64,000 nt of DNA from Dehalococcoidia bacterium (GCA_029246995.1 JAQWMB010000012.1:28653-92652), one strand, 5' to 3'. Shown: positions 7,095 to 39,890, numbered from the stretch's first letter. Made by a program: numbers and translations. Notes: generated by a model from the sequence alone, not told the origin.

Positions 7095-7829
7095 ATGTCC
7101 CAAAAAAATGAATTTGAAAATTTAGAAGATAAAAAAATAAAACACTCATATATACAAAATATGTTTAGTGATATTTCTCATACATATGACCTCATGAATA
7201 ATATTTTCACCTTCGGGCAACATAAAAAATGGCGCAAAAAGATTGTTAAACAAGAAATTACTCAAAACGATAGTGTCTTAGATATTGGATGTGGAACCGG
7301 TGATTTTGTGTTTGATTGTTTGCCGTATTCTAAAAATTCTATTGTGGGTATAGATTTTGCAAAATCAATGGTAGAAATTGCTTATAACAAATCTGATCAA
7401 TTCTCTCAGATGACGAATTTTTTAATTGGAGATGCATTGATACTTCCAATTCAATCGAATAGATTTGATATCTGTTCTATGTCATTTGTTTTGCGAAACA
7501 TTTCAGATGTTGATGTATTATTACGTGAGGTTCATAGAATTTTAAAACCAGGTGGAAAAATTATTATTATTGATGCATTTAAAAAAACAAATCGTTTCAG
7601 GATAATAAATTTCTTTTCTAAATTGTATAGTGCATTTCTCGTTCCTGTCATTGGAAGGCTGATATCAGGCCATCGCAATGCATATAAATATCTTAATTTT
7701 TCTATTGAGAATTTCTATACGATGGATGAGCTGGGAGAATTTATGGAAAATAATCAATTTGTTGTTAGAAATAAACAAACTTTTCTGTTTGGTTCAGTTG
7801 GTGCATTGGTTGTGCAGAAACTTGATTAG
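7095..7829 (+). CDS. menG: Demethylmenaquinone/ubiquinone C-methyltransferase (UbiE/MenG)
   Basis: YDLMN..F.FGQHKKWR, SAM motif LDIGCGTGD, RILKPGG, AYKYL..SI; ATG at 7095 preferred over GTG at 7074. Confidence 0.88.
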   Translation: MSQKNEFENLEDKKIKHSYIQNMFSDISHTYDLMNNIFTFGQHKKWRKKIVKQEITQNDSVLDIGCGTGDFVFDCLPYSKNSIVGIDFAKSMVEIAYNKSDQFSQMTNFLIGDALILPIQSNRFDICSMSFVLRNISDVDVLLREVHRILKPGGKIIIIDAFKKTNRFRIINFFSKLYSAFLVPVIGRLISGHRNAYKYLNFSIENFYTMDELGEFMENNQFVVRNKQTFLFGSVGALVVQKLD

Positions 7830-28939: not shown

Positions 28940-30331
28940 ATGAGACAGTTAGATCTGAAAAAAAATTTAAATAATGTTGGTGATTGCATTATCTATATAA
29001 TGAGTCGTGATCAACGTATTAATGATAATCATGCTTTACTTTATGCACAAAAGCTTAGTCTTGAGAAAGCACTGCCTATTGTTATTTTATTTAATTTTAC
29101 ACCGAATGTTGGGGTGAGGGCACGTGAACATTATTCCTTTATGATAAATGGACTTAAAGAAATTGAAAAAAAATGTGAGCGTAAAAAGATTTCTTTTGTA
29201 CTTACAATTGGTGAACCCATTACGCAAATATCTTCAATGCTTAATAGATTAAATCCTCAAGAGGTAATTTTTGATTTTAGTCCATTAAAGAATATACAAA
29301 AAACACAAAAGAAAATCGTCAACACCAATGAATGCTCATTTACGATTATTGATACTCATAATATTATTCCAACATGGTTATTGTCTGACAAAGAAGAGTA
29401 TGCTGCGCATACAATTAGAAGAAAAGTTCATAAACAACTAGCAAATTGGTTAATAGAACCAGAAAAGATTATGACTAATCCTTATCAATTAAAATGTAAA
29501 ATACCAAAAAATAATTGGAGGAAAGTAGATATTTTAATCAATTCGATTAAATCAAATGGATCTAAAATCGAATATGTTGCTGGTGAACAAGCTGCTCAAT
29601 TAGGATTAAAAAATTTTATATTATATCGACTTGATGCTTATGCCACCCAGCGAAACTTACCTACAAATAATGGTCAGAGCAATTTAAGTCCTTATTTACA
29701 TTTTGGTCATCTTTCATCGCTTCGAATTACATTAAATATATTAAATTCAAGTCAAGAAAGCCCTTTGCTTTTTAAAGAAGGCAAATTACCTTCAATTGAT
29801 GGTGAGCCTTCTAGGCAAGATAGCATCAATATATTTCTTGAAGAATTAATTGTACGGAAAGAGTTGGCAGATAATTTTTGTTATTTCAATAATAGTTATG
29901 ATTCATTAATAGGTGCTAAAAATTGGGCCCAAGAATCTTTAAGTAGACATAATAATGATGTGCGTGATTATAACTACGAACTTAAAGATTGGATCAATGC
30001 AAGTACTCATGATTTAGCATGGAATGCATCACAACAAGAATTGATGCGTACTGGTAAAATGCATGGTTACATGCGTATGTATTGGGCAAAAAAAATTCTC
30101 GAATGGTCTGAGACGCCAGAATTAGCTATTCAAACGGCTATTTTTTTGAATGATCATTATTCAATAGATGGCGGGGATCCAAATGGATATACAGGAATAA
30201 TGTGGTCAATTGCTGGAGTACACGATCGACCGTGGTTTGAACGTAAAGTTTTTGGCAAAATTCGCTACATGAATTTAAATGGCCTTAAGCGTCGCTTTGA
30301 TGTAGAAAAATATATCAATCAATGGAAATAA
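28940..30331 (+). CDS. phrB: Class II CPD photolyase
   Basis: MSRDQR.NDN.AL, SNLSPYLHFG, EELIVRKELADNF, GKMHGYMRMYWAKKILEW, DG.DPNGY.GI.WSI.GVHDR, FGKIRYM. Confidence 0.95.
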   Translation: MRQLDLKKNLNNVGDCIIYIMSRDQRINDNHALLYAQKLSLEKALPIVILFNFTPNVGVRAREHYSFMINGLKEIEKKCERKKISFVLTIGEPITQISSMLNRLNPQEVIFDFSPLKNIQKTQKKIVNTNECSFTIIDTHNIIPTWLLSDKEEYAAHTIRRKVHKQLANWLIEPEKIMTNPYQLKCKIPKNNWRKVDILINSIKSNGSKIEYVAGEQAAQLGLKNFILYRLDAYATQRNLPTNNGQSNLSPYLHFGHLSSLRITLNILNSSQESPLLFKEGKLPSIDGEPSRQDSINIFLEELIVRKELADNFCYFNNSYDSLIGAKNWAQESLSRHNNDVRDYNYELKDWINASTHDLAWNASQQELMRTGKMHGYMRMYWAKKILEWSETPELAIQTAIFLNDHYSIDGGDPNGYTGIMWSIAGVHDRPWFERKVFGKIRYMNLNGLKRRFDVEKYINQWK

Positions 30332-30342
30332 GACTAGAATAA

Positions 30343-30417
30343 TGGTGAGCCCGGGGAGAATCGAACTCCCGACCGAATGCTTAAAAGGCATCTGCTCTAC
30401 CGCTGAGCTACGGGCCC
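30343..30417 (-). tRNA. tRNA-Lys(UUU)
   Basis: Reverse complement GGGCCCGTAGCTCAGCGGTAGAGCAGATGC-CTTTTAA-GCATTCGGTCGGGAGTTCGATTCTCCCCGGGCTCACCA; cloverleaf, encoded CCA. Confidence 0.97.
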
Positions 30418-30526
30418 AGATCTATGTTCCTGAAAAACAACAATACTGTCAACCGATAAATTTCTAATCTGTTAGCATTGTGAACTAGGGGAGTGTTTTT
30501 TCATTATTACTCTAGGAATTAATTGT
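30381..30526. repeat. att-like direct repeat copy 1 (tRNA-Lys 5' half plus 109 bp upstream)
   Basis: Matches 33357-33502; identical over the 37-bp tRNA part, 11 mismatches counted in the upstream part. Confidence 0.95.
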
Positions 30527-30550
30527 GTATACAGATAAATATTATGTAAT

Positions 30551-30572
30551 ACCCACCAATAAACCCACCAAA
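30551..30572. repeat. 22-bp tandem arm-like site ACCCACCAATAAACCCACCAAA (left)
   Basis: Identical to 33229-33250; 9-mer ACCCACCAA repeated with a 12-bp period. Confidence 0.9.
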
Positions 30573-30619
30573 CTATAGAATAACGTGTTTTTCAACTTAT
30601 ACTGAGTTCTATGTAAAAC

Positions 30620-30641
30620 CGTACGAATTAATACGAACTAA
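30620..30641 (-). repeat. Site A: TTAGTTCGTATTAATTCGTACG (inverted copy of the cassette-boundary motif)
   Basis: 21/22 match to the reverse complement of site D (33139-33160). Confidence 0.9.
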
Positions 30642-30725
30642 CTAAAGCAAAACACCATCACAGCCGATGCGAGTAAAAATCATTGCTGTAACAACTGCAA
30701 TTAATAATCTATGTTTTGCTTTCAT
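30642..30725 (-). pseudogene. 27-aa signal-peptide-like ORF ending at site A (probable truncated exported/lipoprotein gene)
   Basis: MKAKHRLLIAVVTAMIFTRIGCDGVLL*; start overlaps the end of the upstream 76-aa gene; stop abuts site A. Confidence 0.4.
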
Positions 30726-30939
30726 TTTTTATAACTTTTTCATACAAGGTTTTAATTCCGAATATAAACCAAACTACTACAAAACCCCACCATAAAGCAA
30801 AAAACCAATCGTTTTTTGCAGTTCCATTCCACTCTAACCATTCAAATACTATGCCTTCCATAAATAAATCAAAAGAAAGTAAAGCAAAGAATCCAAACAC
30901 CCAAATTAAAAAAAATGAAAATGTTTTAATTCTCTTCAT
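30709..30939 (-). CDS. Small two-TM hypothetical membrane protein
   Basis: 76 aa, aromatic-rich FEWLEWNGT.KNDWFF.LWW; abuts upstream gene stop. Confidence 0.7.
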   Translation of the reverse strand: MKRIKTFSFFLIWVFGFFALLSFDLFMEGIVFEWLEWNGTAKNDWFFALWWGFVVVWFIFGIKTLYEKVIKNESKT

Positions 30940-31362
30940 TTAAGTAGCTTCTTTGAAATAGTTGTCAACTTCAAGAGATCTTCTATCGAATTCAACCTCT
31001 GCAGCTCCTGCAACCTCTTCAAGTGGAGAACAAGCCATTTCTGTGCAACCAAGCATACCATTTGAGCAGAAACAATTATTACAGTAGTTATTGCCAGCTC
31101 CTTTTCCTCGCCAATCATCTTCAACGATCTCACCATTAGTCAGCGTGCAGCTTTTGCCTAGAGACTCTTGCTGATAAAGAAAAAAACTAACTCCGACCAC
31201 GGCTGCAATAACAACAATGCCAATTAATGTTGGTACTAATTTGCTTCTTTTTTTTGTTTGTTGTTCAGTAGCTGGGGTAAGTTGTGAGTCTTGCTTAGAG
31301 CCACACTTTGAACAAAATGTGCTTTTGCTATCAATAGGCGAGGAGCATTTTTTGCAATTCAT
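30940..31362 (-). CDS. Zinc-ribbon + TM + pacifastin/VWC-like Cys-rich domain protein
   Basis: CKKC..FCSKCG ribbon; TM helix; C...CNNCFCSNGMLGCTEMAC. Confidence 0.75.
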   Translation of the reverse strand: MNCKKCSSPIDSKSTFCSKCGSKQDSQLTPATEQQTKKRSKLVPTLIGIVVIAAVVGVSFFLYQQESLGKSCTLTNGEIVEDDWRGKGAGNNYCNNCFCSNGMLGCTEMACSPLEEVAGAAEVEFDRRSLEVDNYFKEAT

Positions 31363-31416
31363 AAATTATAGCCCTGAATTAATAATGTATTGTATACAAT
31401 GTGATTATAGCATTAA

Positions 31417-31474
31417 TTAATTCGTATTAATTCGTACGTATTAATTCGTACGATGTAAGTCAAAAAAGTCTACG
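31417..31474 (+). repeat. Site B: TTAATTCGTATTAATTCGTACG-TA-TTAATTCGTACG plus GATGTAAGTCAAAAAAGTCTACG extension
   Basis: Three units of the 10-mer; extension shared with site C; contains the stop codon of the 415-aa gene. Confidence 0.92.
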
Positions 31475-32688
31475 TAGTTAGTAAATGGCCCTGGTTGTGG
31501 CTGCCAACCAGGAGGTGGGTCATCTTCCGGATCACCTGAACGTAAGAATGCATTAAAATTATCATAAAACGTTTGAGTGTCCATGCCTGTGTGTTTTTCA
31601 ATTGCACCCCAGAACCCTAATTCAAGATTGTAAAAATCTCTTGGAATATCAATCCAAACTGTTTGCCAAGATGTCAACGATGCCAAATAAGGAGTAGCCA
31701 TCATAAACGCTGGGCATTTATCGGCATCAGGAGCACGTTCAGTTTCATATCGTTCTGTCCATGGACCCATAGTGAAATCGGGGGTACAATCCCTGCCCCT
31801 ACCCTCTGCAGGGCCTCCCATTATAGCTTGTCGTATTTCTTTGTAAAACCAGGGGTGAGTTACATTGGCAATAGAAATATTACCAAGACCATCTTCCCAG
31901 GTTTGTCCATCAAAAAAAGAGATATCTTGCCAGTGTTGTCGTAACCAGGCATTTTGAAATGCAATAGCAGCACCTTCTACCCACCATGGTGGTGCATATA
32001 TCGTTGTTTGTGGGTTATCTTGATCCCTTTGATAATCTAACCCTCTGTCCAATGAATGTGCTCGTTGATAATGATGAAAGTACTCATGGGCATAATGTAG
32101 TGCTAGTCTTGTTAGATTCTTCCATGGCTCATTTTGTAATTCCTCTTGGCTTGAATCACCATATTGATGCCCATACCAAGTCAGGTTTTTTAGGTCTTCC
32201 AAACAGATGCTAATTGGGTTTGTTGAAGCAGTACGACGTTGACCAGTATTGCTCCCTGTCAAGCAATTACGTTGATCGTGTACATCTGCTACTGTTTTCA
32301 ATCTACCATCTTTAAAATCCAAATCTTTCAATTTTTGAAATATCGGTTCATTGTCTTCATTTGAAAGGTCTTTGTTATAGACAACGTAAAAATAATTTGG
32401 ATAGCTTCCAACTACTTGATTAATGTTTGTATGAACCTCATTAAAAAATTGACGGTGTTCTTCAGGAAATCCTTTATGCGTAACCAGCTGTTGTTTAAAT
32501 TCTTTACTTGGCACATTAAAATCAATACTGATTAATTTATCTAGTGCAGGTCCTCCCCATTGATAAGAGTCACTGTCTTGTTTCTTATCGGAAGATTGCT
32601 TTTGATCAGAAGAAGATTGATTATTTATTGAATCACCACCACAGCCTATAATTACTATACAAAGAATTATAGAAATAACTTTTTTCAT
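31441..32688 (-). CDS. Lipoprotein with HExxH zinc-metallopeptidase motif (gluzincin-like)
   Basis: Signal/lipobox MKKVISIILCIVIIGC; AHEYFHHYQ followed by PWWVEGAA (candidate third ligand Glu). Confidence 0.75.
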   Translation of the reverse strand: MKKVISIILCIVIIGCGGDSINNQSSSDQKQSSDKKQDSDSYQWGGPALDKLISIDFNVPSKEFKQQLVTHKGFPEEHRQFFNEVHTNINQVVGSYPNYFYVVYNKDLSNEDNEPIFQKLKDLDFKDGRLKTVADVHDQRNCLTGSNTGQRRTASTNPISICLEDLKNLTWYGHQYGDSSQEELQNEPWKNLTRLALHYAHEYFHHYQRAHSLDRGLDYQRDQDNPQTTIYAPPWWVEGAAIAFQNAWLRQHWQDISFFDGQTWEDGLGNISIANVTHPWFYKEIRQAIMGGPAEGRGRDCTPDFTMGPWTERYETERAPDADKCPAFMMATPYLASLTSWQTVWIDIPRDFYNLELGFWGAIEKHTGMDTQTFYDNFNAFLRSGDPEDDPPPGWQPQPGPFTNYVDFFDLHRTN

Positions 32689-32700
32689 TGATGATTCCTA

Positions 32701-32721
32701 ACAATTACAATTACAATTACA
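32701..32721. repeat. (ACAATT)3.5 short tandem repeat upstream of the peptidase gene
   Basis: acaattacaattacaattaca seen directly. Confidence 0.7.
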
Positions 32722-32778
32722 TTATAACTATAAACACAACAACATATATCAACATAAGCAAGATATAGATAAAAACAA

Positions 32779-32822
32779 TTAATTCGTATTAATTCGTACA
32801 GATGTAAGTCAAAAAGTCTACG
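32779..32822 (+). repeat. Site C: TTAATTCGTATTAATTCGTAC-AGATGTAAGTCAAAAAGTCTACG
   Basis: Near-identical direct repeat of site B including the extension (two 1-nt indels). Confidence 0.92.
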
Positions 32823-32894
32823 AAGAATATTTAGCCAAGCACCGCAATAAGTGACCACAGCCTTAATTTAATAAAATATTATTGGGCAAATTCA

Positions 32895-33125
32895 TTATAT
32901 TTCAAATGAAAATTTAACTGCACCAGTAAAACTTATAGCAAATAGCACAAGAAGTAATACTAAAATAATTGTGCCAGTCTTGTTGTATGTGCGTCGTAAT
33001 TTAATTGAAGCGTAAATCATCAAAGAGAGCAAACTAAAAAAGATTAATTGGTTTATTAGCATAAAAAAACGCACCTGAAATAAGTGCGATGATCTATTAT
33101 AGCATGTTTTTAAAAGCATATTCAA
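32895..33125 (-). CDS. Small two-TM hypothetical protein (real start possibly ATG at 33062)
   Basis: Two hydrophobic helices separated by KLRR; lies between sites C and D. Confidence 0.55.
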   Translation of the reverse strand: MNMLLKTCYNRSSHLFQVRFFMLINQLIFFSLLSLMIYASIKLRRTYNKTGTIILVLLLVLFAISFTGAVKFSFEI

Positions 33126-33138
33126 TATACAGCACTAC

Positions 33139-33160
33139 TTAATTCGTATTAATTCGTACG
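33139..33160 (+). repeat. Site D: TTAATTCGTATTAATTCGTACG
   Basis: Exact tandem 10-mer; inverted relative to site A. Confidence 0.92.
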
Positions 33161-33185
33161 TTTCTGCATAAAAGCTGAAATAACC

Positions 33186-33205
33186 CTCCCAGCGTCTCCC
33201 AGCGT
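33186..33205. repeat. (CTCCCAGCGT)x2 tandem 10-mer
   Basis: Exact GC-rich tandem repeat in an AT-rich end region between site D and the arm-like repeat. Confidence 0.8.
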
Positions 33206-33228
33206 TAGGTATTTTATCCTCATGAAAA

Positions 33229-33250
33229 ACCCACCAATAAACCCACCAAA
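33229..33250. repeat. 22-bp tandem arm-like site (right)
   Basis: Identical to 30551-30572, same orientation. Confidence 0.9.
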
Positions 33251-33356
33251 GATCAATATCAGTACATATTAAGGCATTACATAGAATATTAATAATATAT
33301 CAATTAACAGATATAGAGAGTGTTATAAATTGTCTGGTATATTAGGTGGATTTGTA

Positions 33357-33502
33357 TTAAAAGGCATCTGCTCTACCGCTGAGCTACGGGCCCAGATCTA
33401 TGTTCCTGAAAAACACCAATACTGTCAACCGATATATTCCTAATCTGTTAGCATTGTGCACTAGATAAGAGTTTTTTCATTATTATCATAGGAATTAATT
33501 GT
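33357..33502. repeat. att-like direct repeat copy 2: tRNA-Lys 5' half fragment (33357-33393) plus upstream region
   Basis: Identity with the tRNA stops exactly at the 3' edge of the 7-nt anticodon loop; no T-arm or CCA follows. Confidence 0.95.
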
Positions 33503-33544
33503 TTTTTATCTGTATATATCGCTTACGAATAATATTATGTGTTT

Positions 33545-34927
33545 ATGAAAAAAAATTTCTATATCAGATCAAAAATTTCTATCATGCTTGTAGTCTTGTC
33601 TGCCTCACTTGCAGCTTGTTCAAATGGAAAATCTGATCAAAATACTGCTCTAACTAATCAATTGAATTCTTCGCAAGCTGAAAGTACTCAGCAACATAAA
33701 GAAAGTAAAGAAGTATTACAAAAAGAACAATCTCTTCCAAATATAACTTATTTTGCAAAAAATAAAAGTGATAGATTTTTTATTGACTTTGAAGATATTA
33801 TTGCAGGACATCCTTATGTTGGAACAAGAAGTCCTAGGCCTCATAATGATGCTCAAGTATATTTTTCAAACACAGATCAAAGGTGGATTGATGCGAAAAA
33901 ACCTTCTGATTACCCTCCTATCTATGCTGTAGCTGATGGTTATGTGGCTCTACCTCAATCATCATTCTATAATGTGGTTGACCACTCAAATGCAGATCCT
34001 CCTTGGTGGCATGTAGCGTACAATTTTACTTTAAGAATAGCCAAAGACGGCAATAGTTATATAGAATTCTTGTATCAAATGGAGCCTTATATGATACCTG
34101 ATATTACGGATAAACCAAAAGATTTCTATAAACAATTCATCTTAGTTACAGATGGTCAATATGTAAAGAAAGGAGATGTATTAGCGTATATGTATGTCCC
34201 GTCTTTTAGCGAAATGACTGGAAGTAAAGGAGCATCTTCCCATATTGCTTTCTCTTTAATTAAACAACCAAGAACGGTGTATGCACCTGCTATTTTTTCT
34301 GAAGAAGTAGTTGCAAAATTTGGTGAAATTTATAGACATCCTAAAGAAGGATGGGAGAGTAAAAGTTTCGGGTTTGATTGGAATAGAGGAAGAGGCCTTC
34401 CAAATGGGATGGGTTGGATGATTAGTGATGAAGAAAACCCATTTGGTGATAATCCTCTAGATGTATTATTATTTGATGGAATTAAAGATGCAGAATTAGA
34501 TCCTAAAGCAATGGCATATCCGAAAGACTTAGGATTTAAATCTTCAAATTTGTTATATAGCCAGTATGGATGGGGAGGCACAATTATAGAAAATATTAAA
34601 ATTGAAGAAGATTGGCAGTTGCTATTTGCTGGTATTGGTGGCCCAATGAAGGTTGTTTTCAAATTAGAAGAAAATGGTCAATACAGAGAAAGTAAAGTGC
34701 TTGAATTACGATCAGGACAAAATTTTAATCTGACTCATAAAAATAATTTTTTAGGAAATGCATCAAAATTTTCTATATTAATTACAGATCCAAATAATTG
34801 GGGATGGAGCTTGGCTTTTGCAAATAAAGAAGCTACATTCATTGCTCCTGGAAGCACAAAAGATATATCTCCTCAATGTCCACCCGGATGCCCACCTAGT
34901 CCAAATCCTTATAAACTTAATAGGTGA
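33545..34927 (+). CDS. Lipoprotein with degenerate M23/LytM-like domain
   Basis: Lipobox LAAC; PIYAVADGYV, GQYVKKGDVLAY, SSHIAF pattern; Zn ligands non-canonical. Confidence 0.6.
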   Translation: MKKNFYIRSKISIMLVVLSASLAACSNGKSDQNTALTNQLNSSQAESTQQHKESKEVLQKEQSLPNITYFAKNKSDRFFIDFEDIIAGHPYVGTRSPRPHNDAQVYFSNTDQRWIDAKKPSDYPPIYAVADGYVALPQSSFYNVVDHSNADPPWWHVAYNFTLRIAKDGNSYIEFLYQMEPYMIPDITDKPKDFYKQFILVTDGQYVKKGDVLAYMYVPSFSEMTGSKGASSHIAFSLIKQPRTVYAPAIFSEEVVAKFGEIYRHPKEGWESKSFGFDWNRGRGLPNGMGWMISDEENPFGDNPLDVLLFDGIKDAELDPKAMAYPKDLGFKSSNLLYSQYGWGGTIIENIKIEEDWQLLFAGIGGPMKVVFKLEENGQYRESKVLELRSGQNFNLTHKNNFLGNASKFSILITDPNNWGWSLAFANKEATFIAPGSTKDISPQCPPGCPPSPNPYKLNR

Positions 34928-34984
34928 TGGCCACAATAATTTAGTACAGCACAAAAAAATATATTTAGAGAGAGAAAAAAGAAA

Positions 34985-35131
34985 ATGGCAAACGTAAGAA
35001 ATGAAAATGGAAGTTGTAAATGCGGCAGATCTCCAACTGGTGATTGTATTGGCTGGCATAGTTTAACGCCTGCGGAATATGATGCGAAAACTGAAGCGGA
35101 AAAAGAAGCAACATTTGGTGACTCTAAATAA
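34985..35131 (+). CDS. 48-aa CDGSH-like Fe-S protein (not in ORF track)
   Basis: MANVRNENGSCKCGRSPTGDCIGWHSLTPAEYDAKTEAEKEATFGDSK*; CxCGxS..C.GxH ligand set; purine-rich upstream. Confidence 0.8.
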   Translation: MANVRNENGSCKCGRSPTGDCIGWHSLTPAEYDAKTEAEKEATFGDSK

Positions 35132-35298
35132 TAATGCTCAATCAGTTTGTTGAAGATTTTACAGCATCACTATTAACAGCAGATAAAACCTCTGAGCCTG
35201 CGTTGGTAAAACATACAGTCCTGGAATAAGACAGTACTATAAAACAGAAGCAGTCAGGCTGTTTATTGAGAAAGAAGTTGTAATTGTGGTATAAGACT

Positions 35299-35340
35299 AA
35301 GGGGGGGCCTACTTATGTCTGAGTGGCTCTCCCCTTTTTG
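35299..35340 (+). terminator. Intrinsic terminator-like hairpin
   Basis: AAGGGGGGGCC...GGCTCTCCCCTTTTT stem followed by a T tract. Confidence 0.7.
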
Positions 35341-35355
35341 TATGCGTTGTAAAAA

Positions 35356-35381
35356 TACGTATATTAATACGAATTAATTAG
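35356..35381 (-). repeat. Site E: degenerate inverted copy of the boundary motif (reverse complement CTAATTAATTCGTATTAATATACGTA)
   Basis: Same orientation and flanking TGTAAAA as site A; ~40 bp from the stop of the minus-strand M23 gene. Confidence 0.75.
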
Positions 35382-35419
35382 TTATATTATGCGAGGTAAG
35401 CTTAGTAACTTGAGTATTA

Positions 35420-36214
35420 TTAATAATTACAGAGCTTAGGTTTCTTAGATCCCTTATACAAACGATCTGCCCAGTTTTGTGACTTGCTCACTAAGTCCGA
35501 ACTTTTTACTGTTGTCATGAATTCAGCAGGACAGAGCCATTCTTCACTCCCACGATTATTTTTTTTCAATGACATGTGGACATGGGCCCATTCATCTTGA
35601 CCATATAGATAACCTATTAACTGACCTTGACGCACAGTATCTCCAGCTTTTATTGTCATCGATTGTAGCATTTTATTGGCAAGAGTTTTTTGTTCAGCAA
35701 TTTTTGTCGCGTTGGCAGGCCCAGCAGATGGCTCAAGGCTGTATACAATGATTTGGCCATTAGGAATTTGCCACGCCAGATTAATTTGAAATGCGCCATC
35801 GGGAGGTCTTTCAAATATTTGAACGAACATGACTTGGCCATCTGAAATTGCTTGAAGCGCAACTTCTTTTTGATTTGTAAAGTAATCAAGACCATTATGA
35901 AATTGAATGCCCAGCTGATTCTCTTGAACGGCAAAAGGCTGAACTCCCCAGTAATCGACAGGGTCCATAAAAGGAGAAACCAAGAGACTTAAAGGCTCAG
36001 ATGACGAAGTTAGAGTTTGTTTAGTAAGTCTTTGCTTTGTGGGGGTGGTTGTTTGATTCTGAACAGGAATGCTTGTTGTCTGTGCAGTTTTAGTTACATT
36101 ATTCACTCTGGGAGATGTCGGTTCCTCTGATGCACAACCAAGCACGACTATGCTGAAAAAGGATACTGCCACAATTATTTTTTTGAAACCCACTTGAAGC
36201 TCCATTTCGCCCAT
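35420..36214 (-). CDS. M23/LytM-family metallopeptidase lipoprotein
   Basis: Lipobox VLGC, Thr-rich linker, FHNGLDY (HxxxD), GDTVRQGQLIG, AHVH (HxH). Confidence 0.85.
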   Translation of the reverse strand: MGEMELQVGFKKIIVAVSFFSIVVLGCASEEPTSPRVNNVTKTAQTTSIPVQNQTTTPTKQRLTKQTLTSSSEPLSLLVSPFMDPVDYWGVQPFAVQENQLGIQFHNGLDYFTNQKEVALQAISDGQVMFVQIFERPPDGAFQINLAWQIPNGQIIVYSLEPSAGPANATKIAEQKTLANKMLQSMTIKAGDTVRQGQLIGYLYGQDEWAHVHMSLKKNNRGSEEWLCPAEFMTTVKSSDLVSKSQNWADRLYKGSKKPKLCNY

Positions 36215-36496
36215 CGATTATGAACTAGCATCTAGGCAAGATAGCATATTTTTCAAAAAATATTCAACAGATTCCATTAGTAAATTAGATATTGGCTTAA
36301 CTTTAATCATTACTGATAAAGATTTAACTACAAAAGAAGTGGGTATTTTATGATTCTCAGTCAAAAGGTTTTTTTAGAAAGACTTTACTTGGGAAACCAA
36401 TAATAAAGACACAGTTAATTTAAGTCAAGCATTGAATTCAAATATTCTAATATCCTTTATGGCTTCTTTATAAAAGCACATTCAATGCTTGTGTGG

Positions 36497-36548
36497 TATA
36501 AAAATAAATGGGGGACCAAACGTAGCTGGTCCCCCATTTATTTTTATA
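36497..36548. terminator. Bidirectional intrinsic terminator with a 22-bp perfect stem
   Basis: TATAAAAATAAATGGGGGACCA-aacgtagc-TGGTCCCCCATTTATTTTTATA just after the CDGSH/pyrE operon. Confidence 0.88.
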
Positions 36549-39077: not shown

Positions 39078-39890
39078 TTGAATATTTTGAATTATCGCTC
39101 TTTTGTGCTTGTTATGGTCATAGCTATTTTCTTTGGCAATTTAGTTCTTATACTTGATAGTAGGAATGGTCAAGATTCTATAATGCAAGATGCTGATAAT
39201 CAAATGAAAAATTCCTCTTCTCGTACTGCATCGAATAACACGATTATTGAAGCTACTAAACGGTCAATTCAGGTCACCGGATTGGGCAGTGTAAGCCTTG
39301 AACCCGATATAGCAACTTTTTCAATCAATGTTCTCACACAAAGAGAGAGTGCCTCCATAGCAAGAGAAGATTCTGCCCGTAAACTTAATCAAATATTTGC
39401 ATCACTCAAACGTTTTGGTATTGATCAAAAAGATATCAGAACAACGAATTATTCTCTCTATCCTGAATATGTGTATGAGAAAAATAAAATGAGAAGAATT
39501 GAAGCATTTAATGTGTCTAATAATTTAAATGTGAAAGTTCGACAACTAGAACAAGTTGGCTCCATTATTGATGGGATAATCAAATTGGATTCTGGCGATA
39601 TACGAATTAACAATATAGCTTTTGATATTGATGATTCAGGTTCTTATGAAGATCAAGCCAGGGAGTCTGCAATCAAGAATGCAATTGCGAAAGCATCAAA
39701 AATTGCAAAAAGTGCCAATGTGCAACTTGGTACTCCTTCAATTATCATAGATATAGAACCATTTTCTAATGGTAATCCTATTGGTGTGCAGCGTTCGATG
39801 ATGGCAGAGATGGAATCTACTCCTACAACTATTGCAACTGGACAAATTGTTATTGAATCAAAAGTACAAGTTACTTTTGCAATCAAATAA
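39078..39890 (+). CDS. SIMPL domain (DUF541) protein
   Basis: I.VTG.G.V...PD.A, GI..KDI.T, ARE.AI.NA..KA..IA, V.VTF. Confidence 0.9.
   Translation: MNILNYRSFVLVMVIAIFFGNLVLILDSRNGQDSIMQDADNQMKNSSSRTASNNTIIEATKRSIQVTGLGSVSLEPDIATFSINVLTQRESASIAREDSARKLNQIFASLKRFGIDQKDIRTTNYSLYPEYVYEKNKMRRIEAFNVSNNLNVKVRQLEQVGSIIDGIIKLDSGDIRINNIAFDIDDSGSYEDQARESAIKNAIAKASKIAKSANVQLGTPSIIIDIEPFSNGNPIGVQRSMMAEMESTPTTIATGQIVIESKVQVTFAIK

Follow-up and report, generated by a model that had tools for sequence, protein, structure and literature searches.

A tandem 10-mer box brackets the cargo of a tRNA-Lys islet and recurs at its inner gene joints in a Dehalococcoidia bacterium

Introduction

In streamlined marine bacteria, most of the gene differences between strains are found in small islands beside tRNA genes, and the traffic of single genes at these places is poorly understood. 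Here, we analyzed a stretch of 64,000 nucleotides (nt) from a Dehalococcoidia bacterium (GCA_029246995.1, JAQWMB010000012.1:28653-92652), referred to as the window, in which a small islet is inserted in a tRNA-Lys gene. A short tandem repeat, termed the box, lies at both ends of the islet's cargo and at the joints between its genes. The same box brackets islet cargo in three genomes of the genus and about a dozen metagenome contigs, and it sits where wild variants differ from one another. A first-pass annotation, made from the sequence alone, had read this arrangement as an integron-like gene-capture system with an unrecognized site. In the following, G000 denotes the genome under study, G001 and G003 are sister genomes of the same genus, and labels starting with L denote loci returned by scans for the box, mostly on metagenome contigs.

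An islet inserted in the anticodon loop of tRNA-Lys

The features of the locus are collected in Table 1. A direct repeat of 146 nt, which starts in the anticodon loop of the tRNA-Lys gene, encloses box sites A to D and the cargo genes between them. In an alignment with the sister genome G001 (alignment A2), repeat copy 2 runs on into the sequence of an empty site, where the tRNA-Lys gene lies directly beside the gene for a lipoprotein of 462 amino acids (aa) and the sequence is 96% identical to window 33357-34941, while copy 1 diverges beyond the repeat. The segment 30381-33356 is therefore an islet of 2,976 bp inserted in the anticodon loop of tRNA-Lys(UUU), which brought its own tRNA 5' half and promoter region. 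One seawater contig of 1,772 nt joins position 30380 to 33357 exactly, skipping the 2,976 bases between near-identical flanks, so that the islet is present in some wild cells and absent from others. The locus has the features of a tRNA island, with tRNA-derived direct repeats at both ends (146 nt here, 68 nt for an islet at tRNA-Arg in G001) and an empty site in both G001 and the seawater contig. At the same tRNA, G003 carries other, shorter content, in which a decayed D-like site stands beside a conserved promoter-and-hairpin module.

No integrase gene was found inside the islet, either among its open reading frames (ORFs) or by Pfam. Since the assembly holds none beyond two Xer-like genes, the islet was classed as an integrase-less remnant. 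The first-pass annotation had treated the array of box sites as a free-standing capture platform. This view had to be given up: the array is the inside of a tRNA-integrated islet framed by the 146-nt repeats, and its ends match those of a putatively replicative integrative element.

Table 1. Positions of genes, repeats and box sites at the tRNA-Lys locus, numbered from the first nucleotide of the window.
Feature	Position	Strand	Remarks
tRNA-Lys(UUU) gene, intact	30343..30417	-	ARAGORN; Rfam tRNA 71 bits; alignment A2; 5' half and promoter now come from the islet's repeat copy
Direct repeat copy 1, element-borne	30381..30526	.	146 nt, 92% identity to copy 2; anticodon loop through 5' half plus 109 nt upstream
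Left-arm box of a 9-mer tandem pair, period ~11-12	30544..30572	.	Direct copy at 33222-33250, 93% identity
Site A	30622-30641; with extension 30596..30641	-	Two units, 1 mismatch; outward extension of 'R2' type; inverted pair with D; alignment A5
Cargo: 76-aa membrane protein	30709..30939	-	No Pfam family
Cargo: 140-aa protein, zinc ribbon, transmembrane anchor and pacifastin-like Cys-rich domain	30940..31362	-	Pfam PF05375, 5e-7
Site B	31417-31450; site 31417..31452	+	Three units starting at 31417, 31427 and 31441; Tandem Repeats Finder (TRF)
Cargo: 415-aa HExxH lipoprotein	31441..32688	-	No Pfam family
Site C	32779-32798; with 'C-ext' 32779..32860	+	Two units
Small transmembrane ORF, 55 aa from ATG or 76 aa from an upstream TTG	32895..33062	-	Occupies the place of the HTH_17 excisionase-like gene in L050
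Promoter-like site (TTGAAT, 18 nt, TG-TATAAT), then 7-bp hairpin and T7 run just before the ATG	33070..33125	-	Kept in L071 and G003
Site D	33139-33158; with 'R1' arm extension 33139..33221	+	Two units; tandem pair 33186-33205 within R1
Remainder of right arm, including second 9-mer tandem pair	33222..33356	.	Homologous to the L040 arm
Direct repeat copy 2	33357..33502	.	Native, displaced tRNA-Lys 5' half and upstream region
462-aa lipoprotein	33539..34927	+	Native tRNA-Lys neighbor in G001
48-aa Cys-rich peptide gene	34985..35131	+	L075 homologue (7251-7400) ends directly at a box copy
Site E	35356..35381; exact unit 35368-35377	-	Adjoining second unit degenerate; 38 nt past the stop of the M23 gene
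M23 peptidase lipoprotein	35420..36214	-	Pfam PF01551

The box and its five sites

The box consists of a tandem 10-mer, (TTAATTCGTA)x2-3, at sites A to D, and of one exact unit at site E. TRF and reading of the sequence both give a direct repeat of period 10, and by eye the box is also a near-palindrome (12 of 16 positions) without a spacer. The number of units ranges from 1 to at least 3. Sites A and D sit inverted just inside the two arms, at distances of 94 nt from repeat copy 1 and 197 nt from repeat copy 2, respectively, and so bracket the cargo; B, C and E are extra copies at module joints. The last unit of site B contains the stop codon of the HExxH gene, and a TGnTATAAT-like -10 element, read by eye and not contained in the list from the promoter scan, lies on the minus strand 7 nt past this site and 55 nt before the start of the 140-aa gene.

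Much of what the first-pass annotation had reported for the motif was found again. All five sites lie at the positions it gave, the cargo genes between A and D and the M23 gene are on the minus strand, A and D form an inverted pair (38 nt, 84% complementary), and the motif stands at module boundaries. The extension common to B and C was recovered both by reading of the sequence and by flank alignment. The motif had not been noticed elsewhere in the window; one additional exact single unit is located at 39601-39610 inside an ORF and looks like a chance match.

When up to 3 mismatches were allowed, the 20-mer had five matches in the window, compared with a mean of 0.06 in 100 dinucleotide-preserving shuffles, none of which (0/100) reached five. 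In the whole assembly (1,185,071 bases in 31 contigs, 88.9% complete), all matches with 0 or 1 mismatch were confined to this locus. Exact single units are concentrated here as well, with 9 of the genome's 18 falling within ~4.8 kb; the backwards-read control pattern occurred 16 times genome-wide. The restriction of the box to this locus and the single-unit counts indicate that it is neither a chance sequence nor a genome-wide operator. The operator, named in the first-pass annotation as one outcome that would speak against its reading, was rejected, as the assembly contains no further copies; a match with 3 mismatches on contig 9 has flanks unlike those of the window sites and looks like chance. 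An assembly artefact, another concern raised there, was likewise rejected, as these sites appear again, together with their flanks, in independent contigs from metagenomes and in those of four seawater runs.

Architecture of the arms

In every site examined, a conserved extension lies on one side of the box and faces outward to the tRNA repeat, while variable cargo lies on the opposite side. Three tandem pairs were detected in the right arm by TRF, namely the 10-mer box itself (33139-33158), a second pair at 33186-33205 and a third at 33227-33249. From element to element, the second and third pairs vary, the two copies of a pair being altered alike, and L040 has a variant of the second pair; the 10-mer box is nearly the same across elements at tRNA-Lys and tRNA-Arg. 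As in the arms of lambda-type attachment sites, repeated sites are present in both arms, inverted and within ~200 bp of the core, and the same layout was found in G001.

Inverted pairs of the box that bracket cargo are present in G000, in G003, where the same CGCA variant occurs at both ends, and in G001, where the left site is degenerate and visible only in alignment A5. In G003, the CGCA variant replaces CGTA, and the inverted pair, 4.1 kb apart, surrounds two lipoprotein genes. A D-type unit of a neighboring islet faces the left site of this pair across ~80 nt, indicating that the islets stand in tandem. At the end of contig 13 of G003, the contig stops inside a CGCA-variant box (L130, 4388-4407), and the box is probably a break point of short-read assemblies of these islands.

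Related elements at tRNA-Lys and tRNA-Arg

A scan of metagenomes for the box returned 61 loci, and alignment of their 110-nt contexts yielded about 12 relatives by flank (L023, L035, L040, L044, L050, L051, L054, L059, L069, L071, L075, and L078). The remaining ~49 loci, whose flanks are unlike those of the window sites, were set aside as unrelated tandem repeats or chance.

On its minus strand, L040 carries, in order, a gene for a 479-aa protein, two small genes and a Com-like zinc-ribbon gene (PF10122, 7e-9). Next come the C-ext sequence, ~30 nt, a two-unit box and the R1 extension with its tandem pair, and after these an arm that is homologous to window 33222-33356 and the 5' half of a tRNA-Lys gene, whose upstream region is similar as well. 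The C-ext of the window corresponds to the 3' end of the Com-like gene and the sequence downstream of it in L040. The 479-aa protein has no Pfam match and resembles DUF3987 and Prim-Pol clusters, with a language-model feature score of 0.98 and a predicted-structure template modeling (TM) score of 0.72; this is a lead, not proof, that it may be replication helicase-like. No replication gene of this type is present in the window's islet.

The second informative relative, L050, comes from a G001-like organism and represents its tRNA-Arg(CCT) locus. A C-type site with the same extension is followed there by a 74-aa HTH_17 gene (PF12728, 1.6e-10; PHROG 'excisionase and transcriptional regulator'), downstream of which lie a D-type unit, an R1-like arm and the tRNA 3' end. 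The islet of G001 at tRNA-Arg(CCT) measures 1,069 bp between 68-nt flanking repeats (87% identity) and carries one rhomboid gene, with a box 30 nt upstream of it and a degenerate inverted box (A') behind it. The window's islet, which carries neither an integrase nor a replication gene, is thus related to a family of small tRNA-integrating elements.

Outside the genus, L040 DNA matched the tRNA half alone, and among 99 genomes of the family, distant homologues of the 479-aa protein (28-34% identity) were found in 3. The exact 20-mer had eight single matches when one genome per species was searched, in unrelated phyla and with unrelated flanks, which is about chance level. In a viral collection, the motif was found at three loci with unrelated flanks, the 479-aa protein was not found, the C-ext pattern occurred at eight loci, none with a unit, and the combined motif and R1 pattern at six, none of them alike. 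Three viral contigs (L081-L083) and one metagenome contig (L058) have in common a distinct context around a look-alike 20-mer, TTAGTTCGTATTATTTCGTA, and their flanks are unrelated to those of the window sites. Two candidate regulators were dropped: an OmpR-type response regulator beside the island in L054 and L035, whose best G000 match is just 29% identical, and the HTH_17 genes of the genus (71-100 aa, one per genome), which by eye are unlike the L050 protein and lie in a metabolic context.

The box as a proposed recombination joint

Sequences on the two sides of the box occur in different combinations among the related loci. In L071, the left flank of D is joined to the right flank of C, and in L059 the left flank of B is combined with the R2 outward extension found at G001 A' and L075a. 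L075a, L075b and L051 have one left flank in common and three different right flanks. In each of these comparisons, the switch between flanks falls at the motif edge. Cargo genes were also found in other surroundings: a copy of the HExxH lipoprotein with 91% aa identity lies between other genes in L071, and an 82% identical copy of the rhomboid lies beside a two-component system in L054.

Joints in wild populations were determined by aligning contigs of four seawater runs from four studies to positions 29800-36400 (6,601 bases) at a likeness of at least 90%. Nine joints were found, one at the islet's own repeat, three on box copies and five elsewhere. The first of those on the box (31414 to 32777), where B and C are joined over 23 shared letters, deletes the HExxH gene. 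The other two connect opposite strands and were each found in one wild contig, one joining the left flank of B to E (31408 to 35386), the other placing C beside the upstream region of the M23 gene (32796 to 36254). Box copies cover less than 2% of the stretch and hold 3 of the 9 joints, and joints are thus enriched on the box. A change of unit number at D was also seen among the seawater contigs. In agreement with the exchangeable cargo proposed by the first-pass annotation, the genes between the sites differ among sister genomes and wild variants.

Search for a recombinase and for features of known site classes

Two tyrosine recombinase genes (PF00589) were identified in the 89%-complete assembly. 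Both are Xer-like (~310 aa each) and are found in core contexts, with topA/aroQ-like genes next to one and uvrC/enolase-like genes next to the other; neither is in the window. No serine recombinase or rve transposase was found in the assembly, and searches of G001 and G003 gave just 1-2 tyrosine recombinases. As no recombinase lies near the array and the assembly holds none beyond the two Xer-like genes, any enzyme would act in trans. To this extent, the trans-acting recombinase of the first-pass annotation is supported.

The same annotation had set the motif apart from integron attC sites, and single-stranded folds of A, B, C and D with their extensions were indeed no better than those of shuffles (z = -1.24 to +0.66). 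An IntI-type recombinase with attI and Pc was not found beside the array, the two Xer-like genes being the only PF00589 members. Nor are the modules promoterless one-way cassettes, as promoter-like modules follow B and D and genes occur in both orientations in related loci. Xer/dif sites have two inverted arms of ~11 bp around a spacer of 6-8 bp; the box, being a direct repeat of period 10, does not belong to the dif-like sites.

Discussion

Our results make it somewhat better than an even bet that the box is a binding array for a predicted element-encoded protein and also a recombination joint. The box would be bound by a conserved DNA-binding protein of the element, either one of excisionase type or a regulator, or the arm-binding part of an integrase. 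An excisionase-type or regulator protein would fit best, because the box is the same across tRNA targets, lies upstream of the excisionase-like gene in L050 and stands beside element-specific pairs that would suit an integrase; an integrase arm-binding domain is the alternative. Exchange between box copies would swap, delete or invert cargo modules, and would rely on the element's machinery, provided that an active element is at hand, or on short-homology recombination. No cognate enzyme is encoded in the genome under study, in which the array would be a relic, acted on only in trans or by the general recombination of the host.

Several observations weigh against this explanation. No integrase was found in any box-bearing contig, and the ORFs of related loci (Pfam was applied to those of L040, L050 and two of L009) gave no recognizable recombinase; L040 ends at 2.8 kb. 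No related element was found in the viral collection or in the 99 genomes of the family. Sites B, C and E have no adjacent tRNA-derived core and are therefore not simple leftovers of whole att sites. There is no single geometry, as by our own count the variable side holds the 5' end of an outward gene in ~10 sites and the 3' end of an inward gene in ~7, and -10-like hexamers, read by eye, lie 7 to 37 nt from the box. The wild joints stem from contigs rather than reads, at a likeness of at least 90%, and one has just 32 letters on its shorter side; joints below 95% likeness may come from other organisms or repeats, although relatives with another gene order are informative too. Finally, at one wild junction the motif breaks off after 18 bases, and the sequence joined to it is without the motif in the window, unlike what precise site-specific exchange would give. 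Taken together with the variable unit number, this junction suggests that short-homology recombination fits as well as site-specific exchange.

A plain transcriptional operator is the first of the other explanations, and we consider it unlikely. The box, as a 16-bp near-palindrome and tandem repeat, would bind a regulator of island-gene promoters and take part in rearrangements merely as a repeated sequence. Consistent with this, B, C, D, the G001 site, L054b, L059 and L071 lie 30-165 nt upstream of outward gene starts, with -10-like hexamers within 7-37 nt (D by promoter scan, the others by eye), a single box stands between divergent genes in L059 and in one wild contig, and the D-type unit of L050 lies upstream of the excisionase-like gene. 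However, ~7 of ~17 sites (A, E, G001 A', L075a, L023, L040 and the first L050 site) lie behind gene 3' ends, where there is no gene to drive. The spacing to promoters is not fixed, and the region has no more promoter-like sites than shuffled sequence (23 compared with a mean of 26.8 in the promoter and terminator scan). On the same grounds, namely ~10 sites upstream of outward genes against ~7 behind gene ends, -10 distances of 7-37 nt and promoters that are not enriched, an activator site of fixed geometry was rejected. Moreover, a regulator would serve island genes only, the box being absent from the rest of the genome, and G003 keeps the promoter and hairpin to the left of D though the adjacent box has decayed.

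We regard dedicated cassette exchange as rather doubtful and place it after the operator. According to this explanation, the box would be the double-stranded, hairpin-free crossover site of a recombinase encoded by active elements or elsewhere; much as in an integron, modules bearing their own promoters would be captured, lost and inverted just inside the arms, while the integration arms would stay and integrase-less islets would be left behind. The flanks do reassort exactly at motif edges, polarity is kept in the sites examined, the conserved extensions never being on the side of the variable cargo, and deletion and inversion variants are jointed on the motif. The same variant is found at both islet ends (CGTA in G000, CGCA in G003), and the C-type junction falls at a unit-like stretch in the 3' end of the Com-like gene, which by eye looks like a secondary site. 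Yet there is no candidate enzyme, as the assembly has the two Xer-like tyrosine recombinases in core contexts and the sisters 1-2. A site has anywhere between one unit and at least 3, one junction falls within the motif and adjoins a sequence that lacks it in the window, and neither a circular cassette nor an empty single-site form was seen. In addition, 20 to 23 bases of identity may suffice for rare homologous exchange over evolutionary time. Of the gene-capture and accretion system put forward in the first-pass annotation, the exchange of modules is supported by flanks that reassort at the motif edge and by the wild joints B-C, B-E and C-M23, whereas evidence for a dedicated cassette recombinase, circular cassettes or a fixed crossover point was not found.

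Replication iterons are improbable. The box would then be the origin repeat for a DUF3987-type replication protein after excision, with two inverted sets flanking the att core in the circle. The tandem repeat of 10-bp period in 2-3 copies, the position of the box close behind the putative replication module in L040 and the distance of ~440 nt between A and D in a circle, around the 146-nt core, would all suit such a role, but copies located internally, where cargo modules meet, and single units ahead of cargo genes would be out of place in an origin, two or three units are few for an array, and no AT-rich unwinding region was singled out. It is highly improbable that A and D (~38 nt) are the terminal inverted repeats of a non-autonomous, cargo-bearing transposon akin to a miniature inverted-repeat transposable element (MITE), since, despite their 84% complementarity over 38 nt and the inverted pairs in G003 and, weakly, in G001, reading of the sequence gave no target-site duplication at the outer ends, islet presence and absence tracks the 146-nt tRNA repeats and not the inverted repeats, conserved arm sequence runs 60-200 nt beyond the latter, and a transposase gene was not found in the assembly.

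The explanation that we favor, a binding array for an element protein that is also a recombination joint, can be compared with several known systems. The arm and excisionase sites of lambda-like attP and the cox boxes of P2-like phages consist of 2-3 short direct repeats at about the helical period, which lie inverted in both arms at 100-200 bp from the crossover, beside other element-specific repeats; some double as operators of the excisionase or regulator gene. The box resembles them in its presence in both arms, its inversion, its 2-3 copies and its position beside element-specific pairs. It differs in having copies deep in the cargo region at joints and in staying the same despite different tRNA targets, whereas arm sites usually follow the integrase.

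Integron cassettes likewise have genes in one direction, a repeated site at each boundary, strain-variable content and gene ends that run into the site. In contrast to integrons, the locus described here has no single-stranded hairpin, no IntI and no attI-Pc platform, its modules have their own promoter-like regions, its sites occur in both orientations, and the array lies inside a tRNA-integrated islet. Cis-mobilizable elements (CIMEs) and accretion at att sites have in common with the islet att-like flanking repeats, the lack of an integrase, dependence in trans and tandem islets, as in G003; the inner joints studied here are without att cores and have the 10-mer box instead. In the Xer-dependent pdif modules of Acinetobacter plasmids and in shufflons, gene modules are bounded by a short alternating or inverted site with no recombinase gene inside, as in the islet. 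The box, however, is a tandem direct repeat and not a pair of inverted arms around a short spacer, and there is no adjacent rci-like gene.

Tycheposons and their kin are described, in the preprint text consulted, as small elements at tRNA genes of streamlined marine bacteria that leave partial tRNA copies, consist of a replication module (helicase or primase) and cargo, decay to remnant islands and show mixed presence and absence in wild populations (bioRxiv 10.1101/2020.12.28.424599). The family studied here is like them in tRNA integration, partial tRNA copies, remnant decay and mixed presence in the wild, and the DUF3987-like gene of L040 may be a counterpart of their replication module. 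It differs in that no integrase is present in the window or in box-bearing contigs and in that the piece of the tRNA displaced here comprises the 5' half together with the promoter region; moreover, a conserved internal box at cargo joints does not appear among the matches listed in the preprint text, the supplements lying outside the search (bioRxiv 10.1101/2020.12.28.424599). The additive flexible islands of Methylophilaceae, as portrayed in the searched text of the corresponding paper, lie beside tRNA-Lys, vary in size and content, contain recurring partial-tRNA direct repeats and carry mostly genes of unknown function (PMC10872708). They correspond to our islet in the tRNA-Lys location, the partial-tRNA direct repeats and the varying content. 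According to the same text, their repeat is the last 20 bases of tRNA-Lys(CTT) (PMC10872708), whereas the repeat of our islet measures 146 nt and includes the 5' half of tRNA-Lys(TTT), and here a second, unrelated tandem box marks the inner joints. A full-text literature search for the 10-mer, the only search made for prior descriptions of the box, gave only unrelated barcode and primer sequences among the matches listed. The searched text of the two comparison papers does not describe a conserved box which brackets the cargo and is found again at inner joints, and it is in this box that the locus differs from them.

If an element protein does bind the box, the box would offer a handle for finding degraded elements and their active parents, and if it is an exchange site, it would represent a new way of moving single genes. 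The proteins encoded by the cargo are secreted or lie in the membrane (HExxH and M23 peptidase-like lipoproteins, a protein with a pacifastin-like domain, and a rhomboid), which suggests that the shuffling acts on the cell surface.

Mosaic genes and other features of the region

The N-terminal 70 aa of the 140-aa cargo protein, which comprise the zinc ribbon and transmembrane anchor, are 90% identical to those of a 254-aa protein of L059 (205-969), and the C-terminal domains of the two proteins are unrelated. Mosaicism is thus found inside genes too, and not at the box alone. The pacifastin-like domain (window 31025-31173) is found again, with 82-94% identity at the DNA level, on a different contig of G000 (G000:C23:41797-41951) and in sister genomes (G003:C5:74033-74174), as well as in L071 (5500-5700 and 6555-6833); among its copies are the C-terminal domain of a 708-aa lipoprotein and a lipoprotein of 92 aa. 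The domain looks like a module that has been shuffled. Similarly, the first ~35 residues of the M23 protein, with the lipoprotein signal and start, are nearly the same as those of a 437-aa HExxH-like lipoprotein in L078 (129-1442), and the remainder differs.

The module of promoter, hairpin, T7 run and ATG occurs in three contexts (window 33070-33125, L071 9725-9790 and L086 4480-4560), and in G003 a terminator-like hairpin lies ~170 nt downstream of it. This module may act as an attenuator or encode a small RNA. A perfect 22-nt inverted repeat with an 8-nt loop (36497-36548), which is probably a bidirectional terminator, separates the M23 region from a CDGSH zinc-finger gene. In an Rfam scan of the region, the tRNA alone passed the threshold; weak sub-threshold matches resembling small RNAs were located at this inverted repeat.

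On the other side of the tRNA, a photolyase gene lies between a pterin dehydratase gene and tRNA-Lys (window 28940-30331). It is absent at this place in G001, which has a 66% identical copy on another contig, indicating that this side of the tRNA varies too. Beyond the islet, the 462-aa lipoprotein gene is missing from some wild variants (joint 33241 to 34933). The 48-aa Cys-rich peptide begins with MANVRN and recurs in other islands, and an 86-aa protein of L040 (555-815) opens with the same five residues.

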